From the NCBI GenBank assembly GCA_003252295.1, contig QKEV01000002.1, forward strand, positions 196 to 64,195: 64,000 nt of DNA. Direction: 5' to 3'. A program made the position numbers and the translations under genes. This stretch comes from a bacterium. Lineage in GTDB: Bacteria > Patescibacteriota > Minisyncoccia > Phycocordibacterales > UBA12088. The stretch's first letter is position 1; each line of letters opens with the position of its first letter. The notes below the pieces were generated by a model. It saw only the letters and a list, made by a program, of their open reading frames with translations, was not told where the DNA came from and searched no databases. Positions 11,465 through 52,537 of the stretch are shown here, in pieces.

Positions 11465-12669
11465 CTAGATACTAAAGTTGCGTATTGCGTAGAGATCCGC
11501 ATCTTCTTCAGCAGGTGTCTCTTCTACTTCAGCTACAGGTGGAGTAAATGTGTCTGCGGCAGTATTGTATGACGAAACTGACTCTGGCATTGGACGTTCA
11601 GTGCTTGGTTCAACCGAGTGCATGTTTGCTGGGTTACTCAAGAGTGGATGTAATGCTGCAATGTTCTCCTCCTCTGTTACTTGTTCTGGTTCTGGTGCAA
11701 CTTCCTCCTTCATCTCTTCCACCACCTCTTCTTGAGGTACGGTCTGCTCACCGTTTCCTTCATCTTGCGTCGCTTTCACCTTTTTACCTAAATCTTCTGT
11801 TGGTGCATTTGGATTGCCGTTGAGAGCATCTGAAACACCATCCTTTTCAAGTTGCATAGCACTCAAGAGGTCAGAGAGATCCTCAGCTGAGAAGAAGCTA
11901 ATAACAAGCTTACCTCCCACTTCCTTCTGCTCTATCTGTACACGAGTACCAAGCTTTTCAGTGAGCTTACGTTCAAGACTGAGTACTTCAGGGTTGATCT
12001 TATGTTTTGCAGAAACTTTATCCTGTGCTGACCTTCGTGCCAGTGCCTCAGACTCACGTACCGTGAGCTTCTTTAAAAGAATCTCTTTTGCGAGTACTGA
12101 CTGCTCCTCTGGTTTGTCGTTCAACATGAGGAGTGGTCGTGTGTGACCCTCAGAAATACGTCCCTCAGCAAGGTAGCCAAGAATCGCCTCAGGTAGCATG
12201 AGGAGTCGAAGAGTGTTTGAGACATACTCACGACTCTTGCCCATTTTTTCTCCTATTTGGACATGGGTAAAGTTGAAATCCTTATGTAACCGCAGAAACG
12301 CTTTTGCCCGATCTACTGGGTTGAGATCCTCACGTTGCAGGTTTTCGATAATAGCAAGCTCGAGCTTCATCTGGTCAGTATCCTCCTCGCTTCGTATGAT
12401 AACCGGTACCTGAACAAGACCTGCTATTTTTGACGCACGCAGACGGCGTTCTCCAGCAATGAGTTCGTAGGAAACATCAATACCACCGTTGTCATGGGTG
12501 GTCTCATTGCGGGTAACGGTGAGCGGTTGAAGAAGACCATACATCCGAATAGACTCAGCAAGGCTATTCAGTTTGGCCTGATCGAACTCTCTGCGTGGTT
12601 GATATGGGTTTGGCTTAATACGTTCGACTTCTACCCAGAAAATCGAATCGCGGTATATTTCGCTCATGT
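11465..12669 (-). CDS. parB: ParB/Spo0J-family DNA-binding protein with long acidic C-terminal tail (ORF-track start 12784; likely start MSEIYRD)
   Basis: ERIKPNPYQPRREFDQAKLNSLAESIRMYGLLQPLTV ParB box; HTH region TQREVAEKMG-like GEKMGKSREYVSNTLRLL; no adjacent parA. Confidence 0.8.
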
Positions 12670-12819
12670 AACGTGATGGTGAAGGTGCGACGGGCAAGAT
12701 CAGCACCTGTATAAACGCCCGATAGTTACAGTATACCCCATTTGTTCTATACATAAAATCGTGTAAACTGGGGATATTCCACATTTTTACCGCCTAGTCT
12801 GTGGTCTAATAATACTCAT

Positions 12820-12901
12820 GCCGGAGTGGCGGAATTGGTAGACGCGCACGACTCAAAATCGTGTACCGCAAGGTGTGGGAGTTCGATTCTCCCCTCCGGC
12901 A
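12820..12901 (+). tRNA. tRNA-Leu(CAA), type II long variable arm
   Basis: GCCGGAG acceptor/CTCCGGC, anticodon arm CACGA-CTCAAAA-TCGTG, T-arm GGGAGTTCGATTCTCCC. Confidence 0.85.
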
Positions 12902-12944
12902 CATAATAGCGCCACTCCTCGGAGTGGCGACTAACATAATTTTG

Positions 12945-13009
12945 GGTAGACGCGCACGACTCAAAACGTGCTTCGCAAGAGAGTGGGAGTTCGATTCTCC
13001 CCTCCGGCA
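12945..13009 (+). pseudogene. partial tandem duplicate of tRNA-Leu(CAA) (D-arm to 3' end; no matching 5' acceptor strand, 8-nt anticodon loop)
   Basis: GGTAGACGCGCACGACTCAAAA-CGTGC...GGGAGTTCGATTCTCCCCTCCGGCAC repeats the 3' two-thirds of the upstream tRNA with a 1-nt deletion; 5' strand CTCGGAG cannot pair with CTCCGGC. Confidence 0.7.
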
Positions 13010-13125
13010 CAATATAATGCTACTCCTTGGAGTGGCGTTATGTCATTCACCTTGCAAGCAATGTATTCGTTGACATTTTTATTTATAATGTTTTAATGTT
13101 GAAAAATACACAGGAGGGGTGCCGA

Positions 13126-17371: not shown

Positions 17372-17581
17372 TTACTCCTTTTCTTTTTCAATCTCTGCCT
17401 GAAGCTCATTGAACTCGTTCTCAACCTCCTTGATGCGACCCTTGAGCTTCTTTACGAGCTCAGCTCCCTCCTTCACTTTTTTGAGCCCTTCTTCAACATC
17501 GAAGTCATCCTTTTCAAACCAGCTTGCGATGGCCTCTAGCTCTTTGAGTTGTTCTTGTATGTTATCTTTTTTTTCTGTCAT
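17372..17581 (-). CDS. xseB: exodeoxyribonuclease VII small subunit
   Basis: 69-aa coiled-coil protein LKELEAIASWFEKDDFDVEEGLKKVKEGAELVKKLK directly downstream of xseA. Confidence 0.85.
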   Translation of the reverse strand: MTEKKDNIQEQLKELEAIASWFEKDDFDVEEGLKKVKEGAELVKKLKGRIKEVENEFNELQAEIEKEKE

Positions 17582-19763: not shown

Positions 19764-20093
19764 TTAAGCAGCTTTTTTTCCTAAAAGCATTTTCAATGGG
19801 ACAGGATTTAACAGTGAGTAAAGTCTTGCCGGAGGATTTGCGTCAACAAAAACGACCTTTTCACCACAAGCAGGGCAAATTATCGTCCAAGTTGGAAGTG
19901 TCGCTTTATCTCTTGAAAATGTTTTGATACCGAAAAAACCAATGTCGGTTTCTGTTGTTATGAGTAAAGAAAAACAACTACCACAGGTCTCAACCATTCC
20001 CGGTTTCGGACCTTTCATGTATTCCTTAAATCTCTCGGAATTTATTCCCTCTCTAATGATTTTTGGCACAGTAGCACCTCCTTGAATATTCAA
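19764..20093 (-). CDS. hypothetical zinc-ribbon-containing protein
   Basis: CGSC ... CPACGEK pairs. Confidence 0.35.
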   Translation of the reverse strand: MNIQGGATVPKIIREGINSERFKEYMKGPKPGMVETCGSCFSLLITTETDIGFFGIKTFSRDKATLPTWTIICPACGEKVVFVDANPPARLYSLLNPVPLKMLLGKKAA

Positions 20094-20337: not shown

Positions 20338-20892
20338 TTACAGAAGCGAGCGAGGTTTGGTGAGGATGATTATTGCAGAAACAGTCGCAAGTGCACTCAT
20401 TACTACAAACAAGGTTTCAAAACTATAGTTCGTCACAATGTAGCCACCTGCTAACGCTCCAACTGAACCACCTGCTGCTAATATGAGTTCCCATTCAGAA
20501 TATCTTTTCACTTCCTTACCTCGGTCAAGATGAGTAGCAAAGAGCGCTCTAAATGAGGGTGAGCCAAGGCCATCTCCAAAACCTAAAATGATTTGTGCCA
20601 CAAACAAAGCAGGGATAGTTTGAAAGAATAACAATCCTATCCAACCCACTGCCCTTACTATAAACCCAGCCACCAAAAGGTACTCTTTTTCAGCAAAGCC
20701 ATCTCCAAACCTCTGCAAAAATATAACTGTAGCAACTTTGGCAATCAGCAAAACGCTAGTTAGGGCACTTATAGACAATATAGTTGCTCCAATGTTTTCA
20801 GCAAAAATTGCGTAGAGTGGCACAAGCATCGCGCCCGCAAAGACAAAAATGCCGTTACTCACGTATAGAGCTTTCAAAGCAGGGTTATTCAT
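20338..20892 (-). CDS. six-TM membrane protein resembling half of an MFS transporter (possible gene fragment)
   Basis: Hydrophobic helices and MFS-like GxxxDRxGRR-type loop remnants (LQRFGDGFAEKE); bracketed by 32-bp direct repeats. Confidence 0.45.
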   Translation of the reverse strand: MNNPALKALYVSNGIFVFAGAMLVPLYAIFAENIGATILSISALTSVLLIAKVATVIFLQRFGDGFAEKEYLLVAGFIVRAVGWIGLLFFQTIPALFVAQIILGFGDGLGSPSFRALFATHLDRGKEVKRYSEWELILAAGGSVGALAGGYIVTNYSFETLFVVMSALATVSAIIILTKPRSLL

Positions 20893-21042: not shown

Positions 21043-21060
21043 GTTGTGCGGGTCCACTCC
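21043..21060 (-). repeat. partial duplicate of tRNA-Trp 3' end (att-like)
   Basis: gttgtgcgggtccactcc vs tRNA 3' end gttgcgggtccactccgactcg; diverges after the acceptor region. Confidence 0.7.
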
Positions 21061-21202
21061 TCCTAGGTCCAAGTCACTAAGTATTTTTCATATCTTCAAA
21101 ATACTAAGTGCTTGCGACCCCACCTCGCGGTTCTTCGTTCCTCAGAACATCGCTGCGGTTTTCGAGTCGGGACACTTTGTGCGCAGGCACAAAGTTTGGA
21201 CC
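21061..21202 (-). mobile_element. family-A miniature insert between tRNA-Trp and its partial 3' duplicate
   Basis: Contains imperfect IR cactaagtatttt-N10-aaaatactaagtg then cttgcgacccc; homologous inserts at 39053..39194 and 52364..52537. Confidence 0.55.
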
Positions 21203-21234
21203 ACAACAAAACCGCCGAAAGGCGGTTTATGTTG
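21203..21234. terminator. 32-bp hairpin repeat copy 2 = bidirectional terminator immediately 3' of tRNA-Trp
   Basis: aaaccgcc-gaaa-ggcggttt stem-loop followed by T-run on both strands. Confidence 0.75.
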
Positions 21235-21305: not shown

Positions 21306-21623
21306 GTGCGTGACACTATACCAGAAAAAGCACCATTCTAAAATGGTGCCACTCACATGTGTATTGGAGAGTTATCTACTTTTTATAGCGTGCTTACGAA
21401 TTGTAGGGTCGTACTTTTTAAGCTCGAGTTTCTTTTCAACTCGTTTCTTATTTCGCACGTCATATCGGATATGATTACTTTCCGTGCTCTTTATTTTTAC
21501 TACATGATCTTGTGACATAGTGACGTATACTTTATAGAAAAATAGAATAATGTCAACCCGCCTACAAACTATTTACTTTTTTGGCTAAAAAGTGTTAGTA
21601 TTCTGTATCAAGATTATATTGAT

Positions 21624-21706
21624 GCGTCGGTGACGGAGTGGTCAAACGTACTTGGCTGTAAACCAAGCGGCTTATGCCTACGGGGGTTCGAATCCCTCCC
21701 GGCGCA
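21624..21706 (+). tRNA. tRNA-Tyr(GUA), long variable arm
   Basis: GCGTCGG acceptor/CCGGCGC, anticodon arm CTTGG-CTGTAAA-CCAAG, T-arm GGGGGTTCGAATCCCTC. Confidence 0.85.
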
Positions 21707-21912
21707 CTACGGAAAATAACACTAACTTTTTGTTAGTGTTATTTTTTGTTTTTGCATGCCGAGGAGGGATTCGAACGAGAGGTGAGGAGGGATTGAAATA
21801 CGAAAAGTGTATTTCAAAGGGTGTCCTCCCGTGTAGGAGAGCAGTGAGCGATAGCGAACGCTGAGAACCGTGGGTTCTAAGAGCGCAGCGAGGTACGAGC
21901 GAGCAGTGAGGT
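21707..21912 (+). mobile_element. family-B miniature insert downstream of tRNA-Tyr (includes terminator hairpin aacactaac-ttttt-gttagtgtt at its start)
   Basis: Core gtaggagagcagtgagcgatagcgaacgctgagaaccgtgggttctaagagcgcagcgaggtacgagcgagcagtgag also at 34835..34905 and (reverse) 51031..51110; left end gaggagggattcgaacg is an inverted T-arm-like segment. Confidence 0.55.
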
Positions 21913-21927
21913 TCCCTCCCGGCGCAC
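21910..21927 (+). repeat. partial duplicate of tRNA-Tyr 3' end (att-like)
   Basis: ggttccctcccggcgcac vs tRNA 3' end ggttcgaatccctcccggcgcac. Confidence 0.7.
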
Positions 21928-22066
21928 AAACCAAAAATAGCTTTATTCTGTAAGGCTATTTTTGATTTGGAGGAATGTAGTTAGTTCGACACACCTTGAC
22001 ATATACAATATTTGTTCTACTATAGACATCAGGAAACCTGAAACTTACAACTCTTTGGAGGACAAC

Positions 22067-34664: not shown

Positions 34665-34746
34665 GCCCGGGTGGCGGAACTGGTATACGCGCACGACTTA
34701 AAATCGTGTCCCTCACGGGATGCGGGTTCGATTCCCGCCCCGGGCA
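34665..34746 (+). tRNA. tRNA-Leu(UAA), type II
   Basis: GCCCGGG/CCCGGGC acceptor, anticodon arm CACGA-CTTAAAA-TCGTG. Confidence 0.85.
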
Positions 34747-34912
34747 CAAGTTTTGAACAAAGTGAAAAACTTTGTTTGGGGTGGAAATCGAACGTTGGAA
34801 GGGGTCGGGAAACCTGTAGGTTTCCCGTATAGGAGAGCAGTGAACGACAGTGAACGCTGAGAACCGTGGGTTCTTAGAGAGCGACGTAAGGAGCGAGTGA
34901 GATAGCAAAGCG
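34747..34912 (+). mobile_element. family-B miniature insert downstream of tRNA-Leu(UAA)
   Basis: gtataggagagcagtgaacgacagtgaacgctgagaaccgtgggttcttagagagcgacgtaaggagcgagtgag; left end ggggtggaaatcgaacg. Confidence 0.55.
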
Positions 34913-34927
34913 TCCCGCCCCGGGCAC
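34913..34927 (+). repeat. partial duplicate of tRNA-Leu(UAA) 3' end (att-like)
   Basis: cccgccccgggcaca identical to tRNA 3' end. Confidence 0.7.
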
Positions 34928-34960
34928 AAACTTACGAACGAGTGCATTAAAATAACAAAA

Positions 34961-35028: not shown

Positions 35029-38000
35029 CTACTCAGTTTGAGAAGTTGTTGAATGTTCAGCAATCACTTTTTGATCGCTAGGTATAAGTCGCTTGAGTGC
35101 CCTTCCAAACTTGCTATCAATACCAACAAAATCTGTTAATGCCTTGATACCACCACCGCCAAGCAGGAGACTCAGGCCACCATCATGCTGAGGAAGCTTT
35201 TCTGCAAGCACCTTCATGAGTTCAGATTCGGAAACTGCCTCCAACGCAGCAATAAGCTGCGGCTGCAATGCAGAAAGACGATCTTTGTCTGCTCCAGCCA
35301 ACGCTGTAGCAATGGCAATTTCAATCTTTGATAACGCTTCCTTTTGTTGTGCCACCTGCGCGTCACTTGCTGTAGTAATCTTAAGGGTATTTTCAGCATC
35401 TGCGGCTCGCTGCTTACGTGCTGCTTCAGCAAGTACATCTTGATGTGCTTGTTCTTTTTTAGCACGATCATGGTCAGCTTTCTGTGCATCATCGTTCAAC
35501 TTATGAGATAACTGTAACGCTGTGCTTCTTGTAACATGATCACTCTGTTCCCTCGTAAGAGCAAGTTCAGTTTTTCGAACAACTTCAGCTGTATCAAGCA
35601 TCGCTTTCTCTTCAGCAATACCTGCACGCAACTTATCTGAATCAAGTTGTGCTTGTGCTGCTACATCGCCGATCTTCAAGGTGGCAATCGTCCGGTTGGC
35701 ATCTTCTAGCTGACTTGCAATATGAACATCAGGAATTTTGTACGTAAGTACCTCAACCTCATCGATCATCATATCGTTGTCAGCAAATAGCATGCCAGGT
35801 CTGGGATTATCACCTTCTTTTGGACCTAATACAGTATCACGAATTACTTCGGTCATTGATGGATACAACTCATGCAACGTCATAGTGCGCGCTTTTGCTC
35901 GCAACACACTGCGTATATGTTGCACCATAACCGCAATATAATTTTTGTGCGTAAACCAGTTAATCTTTTGAAGATCGTTATTACCAACAAAGTGTAACCC
36001 GAAGGAAAGATCAACTACAATACTTACAAAATCCTTCGTTTCCAAGTTAACCTGATCAGTAATACGATTTCCCTTCATCCTTAAAAAACAAGTTTCCAGG
36101 TGACCATCATCTGACTTGGGACGACCGGTTGAAAGTTCCAGTCTTTCCAGCACCTCATCATGCTTGAGAAGCACTGTCTCCGGACCAACAACACAGCGTT
36201 GCCCTCTTCGTCCAGTAATAAGAATGGCCTTATTTGATGGTACAGGTATTGATACTGCCCACGGTGTCACAACACCATCTTGTAGTTGTGACACTTTTTT
36301 GTGTGGCTCATTTTCACCAACCCATAAATTCCAGTTAGCACCAGAGATTGACCTTTTATAGTGACGCTGTCTGCGCGGGTCAATCAGTACAGCTTTCGGA
36401 CCAGAGACCAACTGAACTTCACCGCTCTGCATGTCCTCTACATAAACACCTGACTTCCCGTCCACCGGTATTGCAGTAACAAAAACTGTTGTGTGATCAT
36501 TACCAATATGCGGCTTGTTTGTCGTCGGGTCGATAATGTCAAATGATGCCTGCGGTACAATATATGCCTGCACCCCATGCACAAAGAGCTCATCACCCTT
36601 CGAATACAGACTTTTTTCTTCAACACCTTTTACCCCAACAGGCAACAAGGTCTCAAGGTCATCCCTGTTGATGGAAGTAGCTGTAATACGAAGCAACAAA
36701 CCACTTTCCAAAGTCATGTGGTATGCATCGTACACTCGATTGCGAGAACCTTCCTCACGAAAACGATCATACGGACCAGGGAAAACCCTCCCTGGACCGG
36801 CAACCGGCTGTGGTTGACCTTCTTCATTCAGGAGTACACAGAATTCTGCCGGACTCAACACAACCGCCTGACGAACAACATTGATTTTTACATCTCTTGG
36901 CGGTATTTTTTTTATGGCACCGGCACGTTCAGGTTTACTTACACCATACCGGGACATAAAGAGCTCCATCTCATTACGTTTCAACACCTCAAACAGTGCT
37001 TCTCGTAGAGCTCTGGTTGTGTTTCCGTACTTATCATACTTACTTCGGTAGGTACGCATCACTTCGCTATACTTCCGATACAGGTCAGCGTTCTCCAGAG
37101 CATCATCGAGTGTACGAGATGTAATATCTTCATTGTCTATCAACCTGGTAAGTCTATCCTTGAAAAAACCATCTACATACTCCTCCTCATCTGTGGTTGA
37201 ACCATCATCACCAGAAAGTGTATCTGATGCCTCTTGCACAACCTCTGTACCAGTTGGTGGTATAAAGGTCTGGGTTTTGCTACCAGGTATAATCACCAAC
37301 TCACCGGGACGAAAATGATACGGTCCACTACTCCCAATTCCGGCACCACCCTTTTCCAAACTATCAATATCCGTTGAACCTGTACCAGCTTGACCGGGTA
37401 CATTACCTGGTCCGCCATCAGTACCGCCCTCCCCGGTTTTTTCATCAGAAGGAGGTGATTCTTGATCTCCTTCTTCTGTTTCCGTTTCGCCAGGTCCTGT
37501 TTTTTTGCCAGCATTGACATCCTTTGCATCATCAACAACAGCTGCCTTGATCTGGGCACAAGCAACGAGTAACGAGTAGTACGGTGCCTGCACATCAACA
37601 TCCTCTGGTGATACAACCTTGACCAACAAGTACTGGTTTGAACCAAGTACATGGACATCACGTACTTCGATTTCCTGATGTGGCCAAAGTGGAAAATGTC
37701 CACGGGCAACAACAGACATCTTACCAAACTTAAGATCAATAAGTTCCTGTTTCCCAGCACGCCAAGTACCATTAGGAAAGTTGTCACTCACTCCACCAGC
37801 AGCAGGGTTCTTAATTACCGCATACTGCTGTGGTCCAAGTGTAACAAACGGCTGAATAGCTGAAGATAAATCAGTTTCATCAGCAACTTCCAACCGTGTC
37901 CCATCGTCATTATTTGGCAAGAGTGGTTTATCATCACCAGTCAGCTTATCCAAGGGGTCTGGTCCAAAAAATATACCCAGTTTCCCTTGTTTCGTATCCA

Positions 38001-38043
38001 TCGTCCACAGAACTTCATTTGGTCCCAGCGCTCTTTTGCTCAT
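35029..38043 (-). CDS. major vault protein (MVP) homolog, 1004 aa
   Basis: LERLELSTGRPK...DFVSIVVDLSFGLHF matches eukaryotic MVP shoulder motif (FTVLSLSAGRPK...LQLQLAYNWHF); N-terminal MVP-repeat motif HFPLWPHQEIE (cf. PFPLYPGEVLE); C-terminal Ala/Gln/Lys-rich cap-helix coiled coil; Gly/Thr/Asp-rich disordered insertion. Confidence 0.8.
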   Translation of the reverse strand: MSKRALGPNEVLWTMDTKQGKLGIFFGPDPLDKLTGDDKPLLPNNDDGTRLEVADETDLSSAIQPFVTLGPQQYAVIKNPAAGGVSDNFPNGTWRAGKQELIDLKFGKMSVVARGHFPLWPHQEIEVRDVHVLGSNQYLLVKVVSPEDVDVQAPYYSLLVACAQIKAAVVDDAKDVNAGKKTGPGETETEEGDQESPPSDEKTGEGGTDGGPGNVPGQAGTGSTDIDSLEKGGAGIGSSGPYHFRPGELVIIPGSKTQTFIPPTGTEVVQEASDTLSGDDGSTTDEEEYVDGFFKDRLTRLIDNEDITSRTLDDALENADLYRKYSEVMRTYRSKYDKYGNTTRALREALFEVLKRNEMELFMSRYGVSKPERAGAIKKIPPRDVKINVVRQAVVLSPAEFCVLLNEEGQPQPVAGPGRVFPGPYDRFREEGSRNRVYDAYHMTLESGLLLRITATSINRDDLETLLPVGVKGVEEKSLYSKGDELFVHGVQAYIVPQASFDIIDPTTNKPHIGNDHTTVFVTAIPVDGKSGVYVEDMQSGEVQLVSGPKAVLIDPRRQRHYKRSISGANWNLWVGENEPHKKVSQLQDGVVTPWAVSIPVPSNKAILITGRRGQRCVVGPETVLLKHDEVLERLELSTGRPKSDDGHLETCFLRMKGNRITDQVNLETKDFVSIVVDLSFGLHFVGNNDLQKINWFTHKNYIAVMVQHIRSVLRAKARTMTLHELYPSMTEVIRDTVLGPKEGDNPRPGMLFADNDMMIDEVEVLTYKIPDVHIASQLEDANRTIATLKIGDVAAQAQLDSDKLRAGIAEEKAMLDTAEVVRKTELALTREQSDHVTRSTALQLSHKLNDDAQKADHDRAKKEQAHQDVLAEAARKQRAADAENTLKITTASDAQVAQQKEALSKIEIAIATALAGADKDRLSALQPQLIAALEAVSESELMKVLAEKLPQHDGGLSLLLGGGGIKALTDFVGIDSKFGRALKRLIPSDQKVIAEHSTTSQTE

Positions 38044-38904: not shown

Positions 38905-39038
38905 AGTATTTCTCCTGAAAAATTAATATTACTGACCTAAACTCGAGAATACCAAAATATTACTAATACTCAACCTATCACAACACCAAAAGAAATAAAA
39001 ATATTCCTTGCAAAGAAAGAATGTTTTTATTTGTTTTG

Positions 39039-39052
39039 TGCCGGGGAGAGGA
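39039..39052 (-). repeat. partial duplicate of tRNA-Leu(UAG) 3' end plus 12 nt of its flank (att-like)
   Basis: tttatttgttttgtgccggggagagga at 39025-39052 vs cttatttgttttgtgccggggagaggacttgaacc at the tRNA. Confidence 0.7.
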
Positions 39053-39194
39053 ATCTTTCTCATTACATGAGCAGTATGGGTTTCCAGTATTTTGATTCGC
39101 AAAGCTCTCAAAATACTAGGCAACCCTTTCAAGTCCTCTCCTCGGTCAAAACAACAATCGCGGAATGCTCAACACATTCCGCTTATTTGTTTTG
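39053..39194 (-). mobile_element. family-A miniature insert between tRNA-Leu(UAG) and its partial duplicate
   Basis: ccagtattttga-N12-tcaaaatactagg caaccc, same architecture as Trp and Ser-GGA copies. Confidence 0.55.
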
Positions 39195-39426: not shown

Positions 39427-39564
39427 CTAAAAACACTTACGTCCCGATGCGATGAGCATTGGGGCGTTAGTGCTTTTCAGACCACTAGGGCTCGAAAGGG
39501 TTACCTGATATTTTGCAACTGAAAGGTGTAAAAATATCGGAAACCCATACTGTTCTGTAAGAAA
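39427..39564 (+). mobile_element. family-C insert between tRNA-Lys and its partial duplicate
   Basis: Unique 138-bp sequence followed by partial tRNA copy. Confidence 0.45.
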
Positions 39565-39579
39565 GAGTCCTAGTGGGTG
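39565..39579 (+). repeat. partial duplicate of tRNA-Lys 3' end (att-like)
   Basis: gagtcctagtgggtg vs tRNA cgagtcctagtgggcgg; followed by terminator aaaagcacc-ttaata-ggtgctttt. Confidence 0.65.
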
Positions 39580-39622
39580 AACAAGGAGATAAAAGCACCT
39601 ATTAAGGTGCTTTTATTATTTT

Positions 39623-39922
39623 TTAAAGATTGATTGGTGTGATCTCTTTTGGAATATCAGAGCTACTAACACCAATTGTACGCAAACCTATTTCGAGTAT
39701 TGCATATACTGATACCATAATAGTCATTCCTATGAGACCGTACATGATATGCCGCTTTCCATCGGCACGTTTAGATTCATCACCAGCATTTAAAATAAAT
39801 ACCATGAGACCATACATCATGTAAAGCAATGCACCTGCAAAGATGATTGCAATAATAGGATTTATGATCTCAGTAGTTACCTTTTCTACAAAAACCTTAA
39901 CCTCATCTGGAACTGGTTGCAT
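39623..39922 (-). CDS. TrbC/VirB2-like two-TM pilin-family mini-protein, paralog 1 (ORF-track start 40117 rejected)
   Basis: IIAIIFAGALLYMMYGLMVFILNAGDESKRADGKRHIMYGLIGMTIMVSVYAILEI shares F-x-AGD-x5-GK-x4-WG-x-IGL consensus with five upstream paralogs. Confidence 0.55.
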   Translation of the reverse strand: MQPVPDEVKVFVEKVTTEIINPIIAIIFAGALLYMMYGLMVFILNAGDESKRADGKRHIMYGLIGMTIMVSVYAILEIGLRTIGVSSSDIPKEITPINL

Positions 39923-39963
39923 GTTCTCATTACTATATAGCCATACTTTTTTTACAGCAATAG

Positions 39964-40012
39964 ACACTATACACAAAATGCGACAGATAATGTCGCATTT
40001 TGTGTATAGTGT
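39964..40012. promoter_or_regulatory. 22-bp perfect inverted repeat with 5-nt spacer between pilin paralogs 2 and 1
   Basis: acactatacacaaaatgcgaca-gataa-tgtcgcattttgtgtatagtgt. Confidence 0.7.
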
Positions 40013-40032
40013 TGTAAAAACAATTACTACGC

Positions 40033-40386
40033 CTACGGTGTTGGACCAGTTGGGAAAGTTGTTTGCGTTGATGCTGTAACACCAAATATGTTCTGCATAA
40101 CTGCAATAATTCCCCAAATAGAAACAATACAGAACAATGCAACTACACCCCAGATCATTCTCCTCTTTCCTTCATCTTTCGCACCCTCGTCTCCAGAAGC
40201 TAAGATGAACTGCGCAAGTCCCCAAATGAACACAAGCAGTGCAAGTGAGACAGCTATTGGGATCAATGCATTAACAATCTTACCAAGAGATGTAACGATA
40301 TTGGTGAACCATGCAAAATTTTGCGCAAGAGCAATCCCTGGAAGAAGAACACTTAGTGAAGGTAACACCTTTAAAGCTTTTTTCAT
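40033..40386 (-). CDS. TrbC/VirB2-like pilin-family mini-protein, paralog 2 (signal peptide)
   Basis: MKKALKVLPSLSVLLPGIALA signal; LVFIWGLAQFILASGDEGAKDEGKRRMIWGVVALF. Confidence 0.55.
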   Translation of the reverse strand: MKKALKVLPSLSVLLPGIALAQNFAWFTNIVTSLGKIVNALIPIAVSLALLVFIWGLAQFILASGDEGAKDEGKRRMIWGVVALFCIVSIWGIIAVMQNIFGVTASTQTTFPTGPTP

Positions 40387-49058: not shown

Positions 49059-49192
49059 CTATTATTCTCCTTTGGAAAAAGACTGAAAACTACATTCATT
49101 ACCTTCCTATATTATACCATATTTAATATATTTGTCCAGTTTTATATAGTAGAAAAAGACTCGCTTTTACACGAGTCTTTTTCATATTTTTT

Positions 49193-49583
49193 CCTATATC
49201 TATAAGCCGGATTCTGTATCCCCCACCACTTTTGTTCGTGTACGAACAAAAGTGGTGGGGGACGATAGTTATTTACCTAGCTTTACAGTTACCTGTAAAG
49301 TCATGCGGCACTCCCCCCACCACTTTTACACGATATTCGTGTAAAAGTGGTGGGAGGCACGACCTTGCACGCAGGTAAGGATTTTGCCGTTTCACTCGCC
49401 ACGTTACCGTAGTGATTCATCCACTATGTGGATGTCTTTCCCTTTCGGTCTAGACGTCACTGCTCGCACCTCTATGCTTACACACGACGGGTGTTACCCG
49501 CTACCCTGCTCCCAAAAAATGGGGCGTGTCCGGACTTTCCTCACTGTATATAAAATACACAGCGCAACTATCCGATATAGACT
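49193..49583 (-). ncRNA. rnpB: RNase P RNA (bacterial type A)
   Basis: Minus strand carries GGAAAGTCCGGAC (P4 5' strand), CAGGGTAGCGGGTAACACCCG (cf. CAGGGUGCCAGGUAACGCCUGG), 3' ACAGAATCCGGCTTAT (P4 3' strand) and P1 pairing TCTATATC/GATATAGG; two near-identical long hairpins cccaccacttttgttcg...cgaacaaaagtggtggg. Confidence 0.75.
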
Positions 49584-50875: not shown

Positions 50876-51030
50876 TCATACGTGTGCAGTTGTGTTGTAC
50901 CTTACAAAGAAAGAAAATTACAGGGTTATTTGATACAAGCAACATAACCCTTTTTTTATTAGGATGTGTATCCTAACTGATGATTCCAAAAGGATGAAAA
51001 AATAAAGTAATTTTTTTAATACATTTTCGT

Positions 51031-51110
51031 CTGTGGAGGAGGAGAAAATCTCACTGCTCACTCACTCCGTTCGTTGCGCTCACAAAACCCACGGTTTTAC
51101 AATATTCCTC
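51031..51110 (-). mobile_element. family-B element core (reverse orientation) ~210-290 bp downstream of tRNA-Ser(CGA), ending in partial tRNA-Ser-like ttctcctcctcc
   Basis: Minus strand reads cctgtggagga...aaaaccgtgggttttgtgagcgcaacgaacggagtgagtgagcagtgag-attttctcctcctcc, colinear with Tyr/Leu-TAA copies. Confidence 0.5.
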
Positions 51111-51320
51111 CACAGGGGTGTTGCGTCACCTCCGAGCTTTGCACTTGATTTTGTAATTTATATTTCATAACAAAAACTCTACACCCCCGACGCGTTCGGA
51201 TCCCACACTTTCAGAGTAAACAAAAAGTACTAGGAGAAACCTAGTACTTTTTGTTTATCCCGCCTTCGCTCATCTCTTGCGGACTGTGTCCGCCGGAGCC
51301 GAGCTTCTGCGAGGCGAAGG

Positions 51321-51408
51321 CGGAGGAGGAGGGATTCGAACCCTCGGTGCCTTATAAAGACACAACGCTTTTCGAGAGCGCCCCATTCGACCTCTCTGGC
51401 ACTCCTCC
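51321..51408 (-). tRNA. tRNA-Ser(CGA), type II
   Basis: Reverse complement GGAGGAGTGCCAGAGAGGTCGAATGGGGCGCTCTCGAAAAGCGT...GGGTTCGAATCCCTCCTCCTCCG. Confidence 0.85.
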
Positions 51409-52235: not shown

Positions 52236-52344
52236 ATACAACACAGGGTAACATTTTTTATCATTTCTTGTACAAAGAATTTTTGTCTTCTTGCAACATT
52301 TTGCTGACTGTGTCAGTCGAAGCCGAGCCTCTGCGAGGAAAAGG

Positions 52345-52363
52345 CGGAGAGAGGGGGATTCGG
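52345..52363 (-). repeat. partial duplicate of tRNA-Ser(GGA) 3' end plus shared downstream flank (att-like)
   Basis: cggagagagggggattcgg vs tRNA 3' end cggagagagggggattcgaaccc; flank gactgtgtc.g.cg.agccgagc.tctgcgagg also matches the Ser(CGA) 3' flank at 51270-51320. Confidence 0.7.
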
Positions 52364-52537
52364 TCACAAGTTACTAAGTATTATTCGGAGCAATACTCCT
52401 CAAATACTAAGTACTTGCTACCCCGCCTCAGTGCTTTTTCGTGCTTTGGCACGCGCACTTCCGGCTTTCGAATCCACCGTTCCAAATGGAACCACAAAAG
52501 GTGTACTACTACTGTAGCACACCTTTTGTGTCTCCTG
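52364..52537 (-). mobile_element. family-A miniature insert between tRNA-Ser(GGA) and its partial duplicate
   Basis: ttactaagtatt-N19-aaatactaagtacttgctacccc; hairpin aaaaggtgt-N14-acacctttt next to tRNA. Confidence 0.55.

Follow-up and report, generated by a model that had tools for sequence, protein, structure and literature searches.

Islands carried by tyrosine integrases at genes for transfer RNA (tRNA) and transfer-messenger RNA (tmRNA) are bounded by the intact gene and by a displaced direct copy of its 3' end, which starts in the T-loop. Integration sites of this T-loop class, with a repeat that extends from the T-loop to the 3' end, are said to have been described in tRNA and tmRNA genes by Williams in 2002. 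The attC sites of integrons are imperfect-hairpin elements that encode no protein; integron cassettes form arrays with entry at a primary site, and the structure of attC partly outlasts its sequence. The elements described here resemble both. They were found in a 64,000-nt stretch of Patescibacteriota DNA (contig QKEV01000002.1), which is called the window below, and in genomes and metagenomes of related organisms. They are structured, protein-less cassettes that are gained and lost at the 3' ends of tRNA and tmRNA genes, carry arms derived from their target and accumulate in arrays. At least three families with unrelated cores share one layout: family B (behind tRNA-Tyr, tRNA-Leu(UAA) and tRNA-Ser(CGA) in the window), family A (behind tRNA-Leu(UAG) and tRNA-Lys) and family C (behind tRNA-Trp and tRNA-Ser(GGA)). 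The tRNA is followed, usually after a hairpin, by an inverted copy of its 3' end (the left arm), the core, a direct copy of the 3' end (the right arm) and a terminator-like hairpin.

The first family B copy stands behind tRNA-Tyr(GUA) (21624-21707, + strand), a gene that was recognized by ARAGORN and by the Rfam tRNA model (58.8 bits) and that does not encode CCA. A terminator-like two-way hairpin of 18 pairs with a T tract (21709-21749, +) lies between the tRNA and the copy, and no promoter-like site was found there. The left arm, gccgaggagggattcgaac (21758-21776, +), consists of the inverted T-loop, 3' strand of the T-stem and 3' strand of the acceptor stem of tRNA-Tyr; 18 of its 19 positions match, with one extra base. 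Helix P2, GAGGAGGG...CCTCCC (21784-21830, +), contains a long inserted hairpin, and six of its seven pairs show changes on both sides in the alignment of copies. It is followed by the junction GTGTAGGAGAG (21831-21841, +), by the near-invariant hairpin P3, CUGAGAACC-GUG-GGUUCUAAG (ctgagaacc-gtg-ggttctaag; 21861-21881, +), which is 98% paired and covaries at the base of its stem, and by a 3' junction that is conserved in the alignment, GAGCAGTGA (gagcagtga; 21901-21909, +). Directly after this junction comes the right arm, ggttccctcccggcgcac (21910-21927, +), a direct copy of the tRNA-Tyr 3' end that is exact over 15 nt (21913-21927). An earlier note on this DNA had described a tRNA-Tyr, a terminator hairpin, a left end, a core and a copy of the tRNA end at 21624-21927, and all of these features were recovered at the same positions. 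The left end, described in it as an inverted T-arm-like segment, is indeed inverted, but can be characterized more specifically as the 3' part of the adjacent tRNA (about positions 52-72) in reverse complement.

A covariance model detects exactly three family B copies in the window, at 21755-21930 (+), 34772-34928 (+) and 51030-51177 (-), with scores of 82-111 bits. The highest score belongs to copy 2, behind tRNA-Leu(UAA) (34665-34747, +; ARAGORN and Rfam). Its left arm (34775-34793, +) differs from the inverted tRNA sequence by transitions and retains its pairing through G.U, its P3 is at 34857-34877 (+), and its right arm (34913-34927, +) is identical to the tRNA-Leu 3' end. Copy 3, behind tRNA-Ser(CGA) (51319-51408, -; ARAGORN), is degenerate (82 bits), with a right arm that reads ...ttctcctcctcc. 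It is located about 140 nt from the end of the tRNA, behind another hairpin element, so that its P3 hairpin is 221 nt away. Its core belongs to a different subfamily from that of copies 1 and 2, which are the nearest relatives of each other when cores are compared. The 23-mer core GAACGCTGAGAACCGTGGGTTCT occurs twice in the window, where no occurrence is expected. The recurrence of the core behind tRNA-Leu(UAA) and tRNA-Ser(CGA), which had been noticed earlier, is thus recovered by the model. The third copy had been taken to be reversed. It does lie on the minus strand, but so does tRNA-Ser(CGA), and all three copies have the sense of their own tRNA.

The structure of the core was examined in a MAFFT alignment of 24 distinct copies, three from the window and 21 from the database scans presented below. 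The alignment, which was not fitted to any structure, was used for the analysis of covariation. It contains two consensus helices, P2 (GGUCGGGG.../...CCCCG) and P3. Standard pairs make up 95% of the helix cells, compared to 35-65% when the partner is slid by 1-3 columns. Compensatory changes are present in 9 of the 16 pairs. The number of cells changed on both sides is 69, compared to 21 ± 5 in shuffles, and none of 500 shuffles reaches this value. The minimum free energy (MFE) of the sense strand is below that of the antisense strand in all 24 copies (means of -58.2 and -50.9 kcal/mol). The conserved hairpin that had been noticed earlier therefore belongs to a structured element, and covariation, on which this proposal depended, is found in both core helices. 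Within the core, P2 is followed by an optional hairpin, then by the invariant GAACC-GUG-GGUUC hairpin P3, and finally by a variable hairpin. In most MFE folds the two arms pair with each other and close a four- or five-way junction. A 12-bp helix that resembles the acceptor and T-stems and has a discriminator at its 3' end is predicted in most folds, and is weak or absent in about 40% of the B copies. In the copies with a closing stem, the 3' strand of this stem repeats directly the 3' strands of the T-stem and acceptor stem of the host tRNA together with the discriminator, and the 5' strand is the same segment inverted. The closing stem is predicted to mimic the coaxial acceptor/T-stem 'top half' of the neighboring tRNA, with the core placed where the T-loop would be.

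The B element could not be assigned to a described family. With Rfam 15 at the gathering threshold, the window contains only tRNAs and RNase P RNA, and a search of 21600-22000 with E values up to 10 gave nothing credible; known RNA families were excluded on these grounds. No description of these elements was found in the full-text literature that was searched. Group I introns reported in the anticodon loops of Patescibacteria tRNAs (PMC13011429) are distinct from these cassettes. A hammerhead-like reading of CUGAGA... was discarded as the motif does not fit, and so was a small open reading frame (ORF) behind an AGGAG motif, which by inspection is present in only two of the window copies and is not conserved.

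A strict degenerate pattern built from the three window copies was searched in 185,579 genomes, and a looser pattern in metagenomes; the database loci are named by L-numbers. The strict pattern matched three species. UBA2163 and Candidatus Yonathbacteria are Patescibacteria by name, and the third, an unclassified metagenome-assembled genome, was assigned to Patescibacteria by the architecture of its element. The looser pattern matched 32 metagenome loci; 21 of these represent true copies, 18 of them distinct, and the remaining 11 are chance matches in high-GC coding DNA. In the collections searched, family B is limited to Patescibacteria. Truncated B remnants are present in L002 and L005. The family of mini-elements at tRNA 3' ends, whose terminal repeats resemble the ends of tRNAs, had been proposed on the basis of three copies and now comprises 24. 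No family B match was found in viral contigs, and a phage origin was dropped for this reason.

ARAGORN identified a tRNA upstream on the same strand in 17 cases, with 13 specificities (Asp, Met, Ile, Glu, Thr, Phe, His, Ser, Gln, Pro, Arg, Tyr and Leu). In L027 the copy has tmRNA as its host, and its arms correspond to the tRNA-like 3' end of that gene. The B element of L009 and L018 is positioned directly after the stop codon of rpsI, in front of the operon terminator. The last ~27 nt of rpsI are repeated imperfectly and in direct orientation as its right arm (21/27), and its left arm contains an inverted copy (10/11). The evidence for these arms is weaker, their scores lying close to the upper end of the shuffles. 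The rpsI-linked copy has been kept between two species, and the cores are 95% identical. The matching arms at tRNA, tmRNA and rpsI hosts show that the arms are taken from whatever gene lies upstream; tRNA-like 3' ends are by far the preferred hosts. The genes upstream of three other B copies (L003, about 1480-1700, -; L030, about 370-520, -; L012, about 800-950, +) were recognized by neither ARAGORN nor Rfam. The arms of these copies resemble tRNA 3' ends, the right arms of L030 and L012 being broken by a ~30-nt insert, and the upstream genes may be intron-containing or otherwise unusual tRNA-like genes.

This range of hosts bears on the relationship of the cassettes to integrase-borne islands. 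If the cassettes were decayed ends of such islands, one would read the direct repeat as attR and the core as the remnant of one island family. The geometry of the repeat, from the T-loop to the 3' end, does resemble that reported for T-loop-class sites; tmRNA serves as a host as well, several units can accumulate in tandem behind a single tRNA, the repeats can enclose cargo (as in L026, see below), and a partial duplicate of tRNA-Leu(CAA) in the window (12944-13010) resembles a scar of this kind. Integrases are specific for one or two tRNAs, whereas a single cassette core serves 13 specificities. The cassettes measure 140-220 bp and contain no integrase, nor was an integrase or its remnant found in the window or in the ORFs beside B copies, and no full-length integrase island ending in a B core was found in about 280 kb of related loci. 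The inverted copy of the target, the compensatory changes and the folding bias of the sense strand are unexpected for a decaying att arm, and three unrelated cores share one arm layout. An origin by decay of integrase islands is therefore very improbable.

The two arms differ in how faithfully they follow the host gene. The right arm is almost always exact over 9-19 nt. It starts in the T-loop, around positions 53-60, and its end point varies. Most copies stop shortly after the discriminator. In L004, L021 and L022 the right arm runs on through the trailer and terminator as an imperfect copy of about 50-70 nt (80-90% identity), and that of L021 and L022 additionally extends deeper into the T-loop. 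The left arm is a genuine reverse complement: the non-palindromic T-loop TTCAAGT of the host in L002 appears as ACTTGAA in an arm that matches at 21 of 21 positions. At a position where the host tRNA has G.U, the base in the left arm is the Watson-Crick partner of the 3' strand and does not reproduce the 5' strand of the tRNA. Left arms are bimodal in quality. The arm is near-perfect in L002, L004, L022, L023, L024, L028 and the Tyr copy of the window, and limited to the T-loop match in L005, L014, L017, L021 and L035. Pairing is kept through C-to-U changes in L015/L026 and in the window Leu copy. In one metagenome, tmRNA-linked and tRNA-Arg-linked cores are 90% identical and have different arms, the right arms perfect and the left arms matching in the T-loop only. 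These copies suggest that insertion sets the right arm and that the left arm comes later. Two other origins of the left arm were rejected. Copy-back from the right arm is contradicted by L002, where the exact T-loop complement in the left arm has no counterpart in the right arm, and a primer-binding site for mature tRNA by the lack of any complement of CCA or of the discriminator.

The same observations bear on a retro-element resembling short interspersed nuclear elements (SINEs), that is, a tRNA-tagged RNA that would be inserted by target-primed reverse transcription with an enzyme supplied in trans, the first nick falling in the T-loop and the second at a variable position. The start of the repeat in the T-loop and its variable end, which sometimes takes in the trailer and terminator and then corresponds to the 3' part of the primary transcript (L004, L021, L022 and L041), would be explained, as would the tRNA-like closing stem and the near-identical cores behind different hosts. 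However, there is no reverse transcriptase in the window or in the 10 ORFs beside B copies, the T-loop information in the L002 left arm precludes simple copy-back, and group II introns are reported to be absent from Patescibacteria (PMC13011429). Such an origin is quite unlikely. Paired ends are also found in the non-coding RNAs of retrons, but no reverse transcriptase is encoded downstream in any locus scanned.

Families A and C share the arm layout of family B but have different cores. The B covariance model detects none of their elements in the window, which ruled out a single model for all families. The A-type elements are behind tRNA-Leu(UAG) (39038-39150, -) and tRNA-Lys(CUU) (39478-39595, +), with fold z-scores, measured against shuffled sequence, of -7.0 and -5.5, respectively. 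The C-type elements are behind tRNA-Trp (21046-21205, -), where a hairpin splits the left arm, and behind tRNA-Ser(GGA) (52342-52480, -), where the right arm has 19 nt. In C-type and some A-type elements this hairpin divides the left arm exactly between the acceptor-complement and the T-stem-complement, and in some A and C copies the side hairpin sits exactly at the branch point of a tRNA body. The predicted fold of a split arm has an acceptor-like stem, a side arm and a T-like stem around the core, like a tRNA with an expanded T-loop. The 3' hairpin of family A, for which a GNRA tetraloop had been considered, has a GUA triloop instead.

The last 14 nt of six window tRNAs (Leu-CAA, Trp, Tyr, Leu-UAA, Leu-UAG and Ser-GGA) are repeated 100-220 nt downstream, and imperfect downstream copies of the 3' end are present for Lys-CUU and Ser-CGA. 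Some downstream duplicate of its own 3' end is found for nine of the ten tRNAs, counting a partial gene duplicate behind tRNA-Leu(CAA). In the latter (12903-13010, +), the tRNA is repeated without its 5' part, from the D-loop to the 3' end (12944-13010), and a second, nearly identical terminator follows; this is a partial tandem gene duplicate and has no structured core. Both tRNA-Ser genes are followed by a related sequence of ~60 nt (51255-51318, -, and 52290-52343, -; cctcgcaga.gctcggct.cg.c.gacacagtc.gcaa), which may be another trailer element. At Ser(CGA) it forms a 10-bp stem with the last 5 nt of the tRNA (z = -2.7). At Ser(GGA) it is placed after the right arm, which indicates that the C-type element was inserted between the tRNA and its old trailer.

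Gain and loss of the cassettes could be followed in close relatives. A vault-protein-like gene was tried as a synteny anchor for empty sites and dropped, as its nearest homologs are at most 47% identical. GyrA homologs, which are 82-87% identical, led to four distinct syntenic loci (L037, L038, L040 and L041; L039 duplicates L038). The gene order around the Leu-UAG/Lys/Leu-UAA/Cys tRNA cluster is the same in the window and in all of these loci, but the cassette occupants differ between relatives at every tRNA examined, with different core families at the same tRNA. Behind tRNA-Leu(UAA) there is a B element in the window, C and then A in L038, A and then C in L040, and nothing in L041. Behind tRNA-Cys a cassette is present in L037 and L038, whereas the site is empty in the window, L040 and L041. 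Compared to L038, L040 has 163 extra nucleotides directly behind tRNA-Leu(UAA), which consist of an A-type element and one more copy of GGGTTCGATTCCCGCCCCGGGCAC. The resulting repeat is perfect over 22-25 nt and starts in the T-loop. Beyond the insertion, the old trailer and the C-type element resume with ~90% identity to L038. New units thus insert beside the tRNA and displace older ones outward. Two identical A-type units are arranged in tandem behind tRNA-Lys in L037, and a perfect repeat of 48 nt in L041 is composed of 15 nt of the tRNA end and 33 nt of trailer. The duplication always begins in the T-loop, and its end varies from the discriminator to about 50 nt beyond. The search for empty sites suggested in the earlier note therefore revealed both empty and filled sites; the clean pair belongs to family A, and for family B the covariance model finds no copy in the four relatives. 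A piece of ~56 nt (gacacaaggttatttccatttttctaactc...aagaaaaattggtcaa) is present as an insert inside the C-type element of L040 when compared to L038, and a similar piece is located near tRNA-Cys in L038 (about 20790-20850, -, in L040; about 19900-19990, -, in L038). It may be a still smaller nested insertion element.

If the elements were vertically inherited RNA genes of the host, their arms would be matched by gene conversion and differences in occupancy would be due to loss only. The tRNA-Glu and B pairing is kept in L015 and L026 although all flanks are different, the rpsI-linked copy is shared by two species, and the right arm is perfect while the flanks diverge, as gene conversion predicts. 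The clean insertion in L040 with its perfect repeat, the different core families at the same tRNA in close relatives, the tandem identical units and truncated remnants, and the patchy occurrence of the strict pattern (3 species among 185,579 genomes) all speak against purely vertical descent, which is improbable. In L026 a 346-residue ORF (11967-13007, +), with predicted membrane segments and no Pfam match, is located between tRNA-Glu and the B element, the right arm of which is still equal to the tRNA-Glu 3' end; in the related L015 only a hairpin is present there. The ORF may be the cargo of a larger version of the cassette. The L026 contig, which belongs to Patescibacteria, also contains a LOOT RNA (133-257, +; Rfam RF03000, 63 bits).

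No enzyme that could mobilize the cassettes is linked to them. Pfam searches of window ORFs of at least 150 residues (the longer one where two overlap) revealed housekeeping or unknown proteins only, and no integrase, transposase, HUH protein, Cas protein or reverse transcriptase. The 10 ORFs adjoining B copies in nine other loci encode only housekeeping or unknown proteins and no mobility enzyme, and the gene tables of the syntenic loci list no integrase, transposase, HUH, Cas or reverse transcriptase. A linked mobilizing enzyme was rejected on this basis. The Pfam scans and syntenic gene tables also show neither an integron integrase IntI nor attI beside the arrays. Unlike integron cassettes, the elements lack the R''/R' core-site consensus, have a tRNA 3' end as the primary site, copy their stem from the host and are mostly without ORFs. 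By inspection, RYYYAAC...GTTRRRY is not found at the outer ends; the T-loop-derived ATCGAAC/GTTCGAT at the inner ends deviates from the consensus.

Nevertheless, the elements could be recombination sites of folded single-stranded DNA (ssDNA), similar to integron attC or the CTX-phage attP hairpin. The conserved hairpins and the stem of the two arms would then be recognized as DNA by a structure-specific recombinase or HUH enzyme encoded elsewhere, which would suffice without any RNA. The entry of new units beside the tRNA, with older ones pushed out as at integron attI, and the candidate cargo ORF between tRNA and element in L026 agree with this. So do the strong terminators and missing promoters upstream of many copies, which speak against efficient transcription, the fixed P3 palindrome GAACC/GGTTC, which would suit a DNA-binding dimer, and the tolerance of DNA hairpins to G.T pairs. 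On the other hand, the elements always have the sense of the host transcript, and in L009 and L018 their position is after the stop codon of rpsI and before the operon terminator. The attC consensus is absent from the outer ends, and there is no integron-type or other recombinase in the window or in the 10 ORFs beside B copies. Orientation is not tied to one replication strand either, as both strands are used while the GC skew is negative in 30 of 32 two-kb bins. A site acting as ssDNA alone is thus unlikely, although less so than the origins considered above.

Several other classes of small elements share some of these properties. MITEs (miniature inverted-repeat transposable elements) and the REP/BIME, Correia, RUP and ERIC sequences are likewise short non-coding sequences that occur in many copies between genes, have inverted termini and can form hairpins. 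The termini of the cassettes, however, are not constant but vary with the end of the adjacent gene, target choice is strict, and the duplication is long and variable (9-22 nt exact, with one case of 48 nt, and about 50-75 nt imperfect in others) with no fixed length. The window and about 280 kb of related loci yielded no autonomous transposon with cassette ends. The tRNA-like modules of tmRNA, mascRNA, viral tRNA-like structures and YrlA Y RNAs also form an acceptor/T-stem-like helix from the ends of the RNA, with a discriminator-like 3' overhang, and adjacency to a tRNA gene would permit shared processing. In the cassettes the mimicry is predicted, the helix is a literal copy of the neighbor that differs from copy to copy, and no T-loop is formed. 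Rfam models of tRNA-like RNAs gave no match, and sub-threshold hits overlap only with the tRNA gene itself.

The guide RNAs of TnpB and IscB and the tRNA-homing guide of type V-K CRISPR-associated transposons have a scaffold followed by 15-20 nt identical to the flank or to the attachment site at a tRNA 3' end. The right arm follows the core in the same manner, beside the conserved T-loop GGTTC. However, Pfam found no TnpB, IscB, Cas12k or Tns genes and Rfam no omega-RNA; the target is intact in the same genome, and the cassettes have an extra antisense arm and a target duplication. IS200/IS605 elements make no target duplication. For the integrase islands, integron cassettes, MITEs and these guide RNAs, a defining feature was tested and is lacking in the cassettes. 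SINE-like retroposons, with which the cassettes have in common a tRNA-related part and a variable duplication, would need a reverse transcriptase, and none is encoded locally. The cassettes are nearest to integrative elements of tRNA sites, with a substantial chance that they are something more distinct.

The earlier note had treated a mobile element and a structured RNA as alternatives. They need not be, as the data fit a cassette that is gained and lost and has a folding sense strand. The copying of the arms from the specific neighboring gene, the tmRNA and rpsI hosts, the existence of several core families and the variable repeat length had been missed in that note. The explanation that we favor, and give a somewhat better than even chance, is that families A, B and C are 140-220-bp protein-less cassettes at tRNA and tmRNA 3' ends, and occasionally at other genes, that specify a folded, tRNA-mimicking strand, are mobilized in trans and have an RNA product. 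Its steps are given here from the most to the least secure. The cassettes would be mobilized in trans by recombination within the repeated tRNA segment, of Campbell type or assisted by homology and plausibly connected with DNA uptake, and the direct copy would be footprint and homology arm at once. This would explain the variable repeat length and the retained trailer. After insertion, the inverted copy would be re-templated from the neighboring tRNA, by template switching at a quasi-palindrome or by gene conversion, which would account for a right arm that is perfect in nearly all copies and a left arm that varies between 21/21 matches and a match in the T-loop only. The product would be an RNA made with the tRNA transcript, which RNase P, 3'-end processing enzymes and the CCA-adding enzyme may mature and stabilize by way of the closing stem.

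A number of observations weigh against this explanation. About 40% of B left arms match the local tRNA only in the T-loop, so that the closing stem is not universal, and cognate arms pair only moderately better than non-cognate ones (-17.8 versus -13.9 ± 3.9 kcal/mol). The left arm in L015/L026 overlaps with the T tract of the hairpin before it, and the C-to-T changes there may be kept for termination and not for G.U pairing. Hairpins with covarying, G.T-tolerant stems and fixed triloops (GUG in B, GUA in A) suit ssDNA as well as RNA. Several copies, including that of tRNA-Tyr, stand behind a strong terminator-like hairpin with no promoter-like site between tRNA and element. Recombination within the segment from T-loop to 3' end between different tRNAs would yield chimeric tRNAs, and no recombinase was identified among the window ORFs, the ORFs adjoining copies or the syntenic gene tables. 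The close relatives all come from metagenome assemblies, and the clean filled/empty pair belongs to family A, not B.

The window contains ten tRNA genes, an RNase P RNA and the housekeeping genes mraW, PBP, relA/spoT, parB, clpB, infB, gyrA and groEL. The RNase P RNA, of class A (49187-49583, -), scores 125 bits against a gathering score of 100 and is divergent, which would be relevant if the cassettes depend on RNase P. Arrays of four to seven small genes resembling pilins of type IV secretion systems adjoin the tRNA cluster that collects cassettes (39623-40117, -, in the window; about 14400-17300 in L037-L041) and are kept in all syntenic relatives. An ORF of LAGLIDADG type in L037 (17447-18145, -) overlaps tRNA-Leu(UAA) (17392-17478) and may be the homing endonuclease of an intron or intein. 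The vault-protein-like gene mentioned above (35029-38043, -) encodes a 1004-residue protein with a major-vault-protein shoulder and repeat domains. Its homologs are widespread in Patescibacteria and Myxococcota, and it is an unusual find in a bacterium with a tiny genome.

The genomes of Patescibacteria are among the smallest of bacteria, yet kilobase-scale stretches beside their tRNA genes are filled with cassettes. The tRNA 3'-end fragments and palindromes made by the cassettes can mislead tRNA annotation, island finders and assemblers. Two features are unusual whether the cassettes act as RNA or as DNA: the arms track the host gene, and new units enter beside the tRNA. If they act at the DNA level, they would represent an integration system that serves many tRNA genes without a linked enzyme. 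If they are RNAs that borrow the identity of the neighboring tRNA, they would constitute a new class of tRNA mimic. It is possible, although we hold it only tentatively, that each is a mobile RNA gene, a mimic of the tRNA 'top half' whose closing helix is re-templated from the tRNA, tmRNA or other gene end behind which it has landed and which is spread by the host machinery for tRNA processing, recombination or DNA uptake without a protein of its own. Such a gene would be a bacterial counterpart of SINEs or of 'genomic tag' RNAs, with programmable arms derived from the target.

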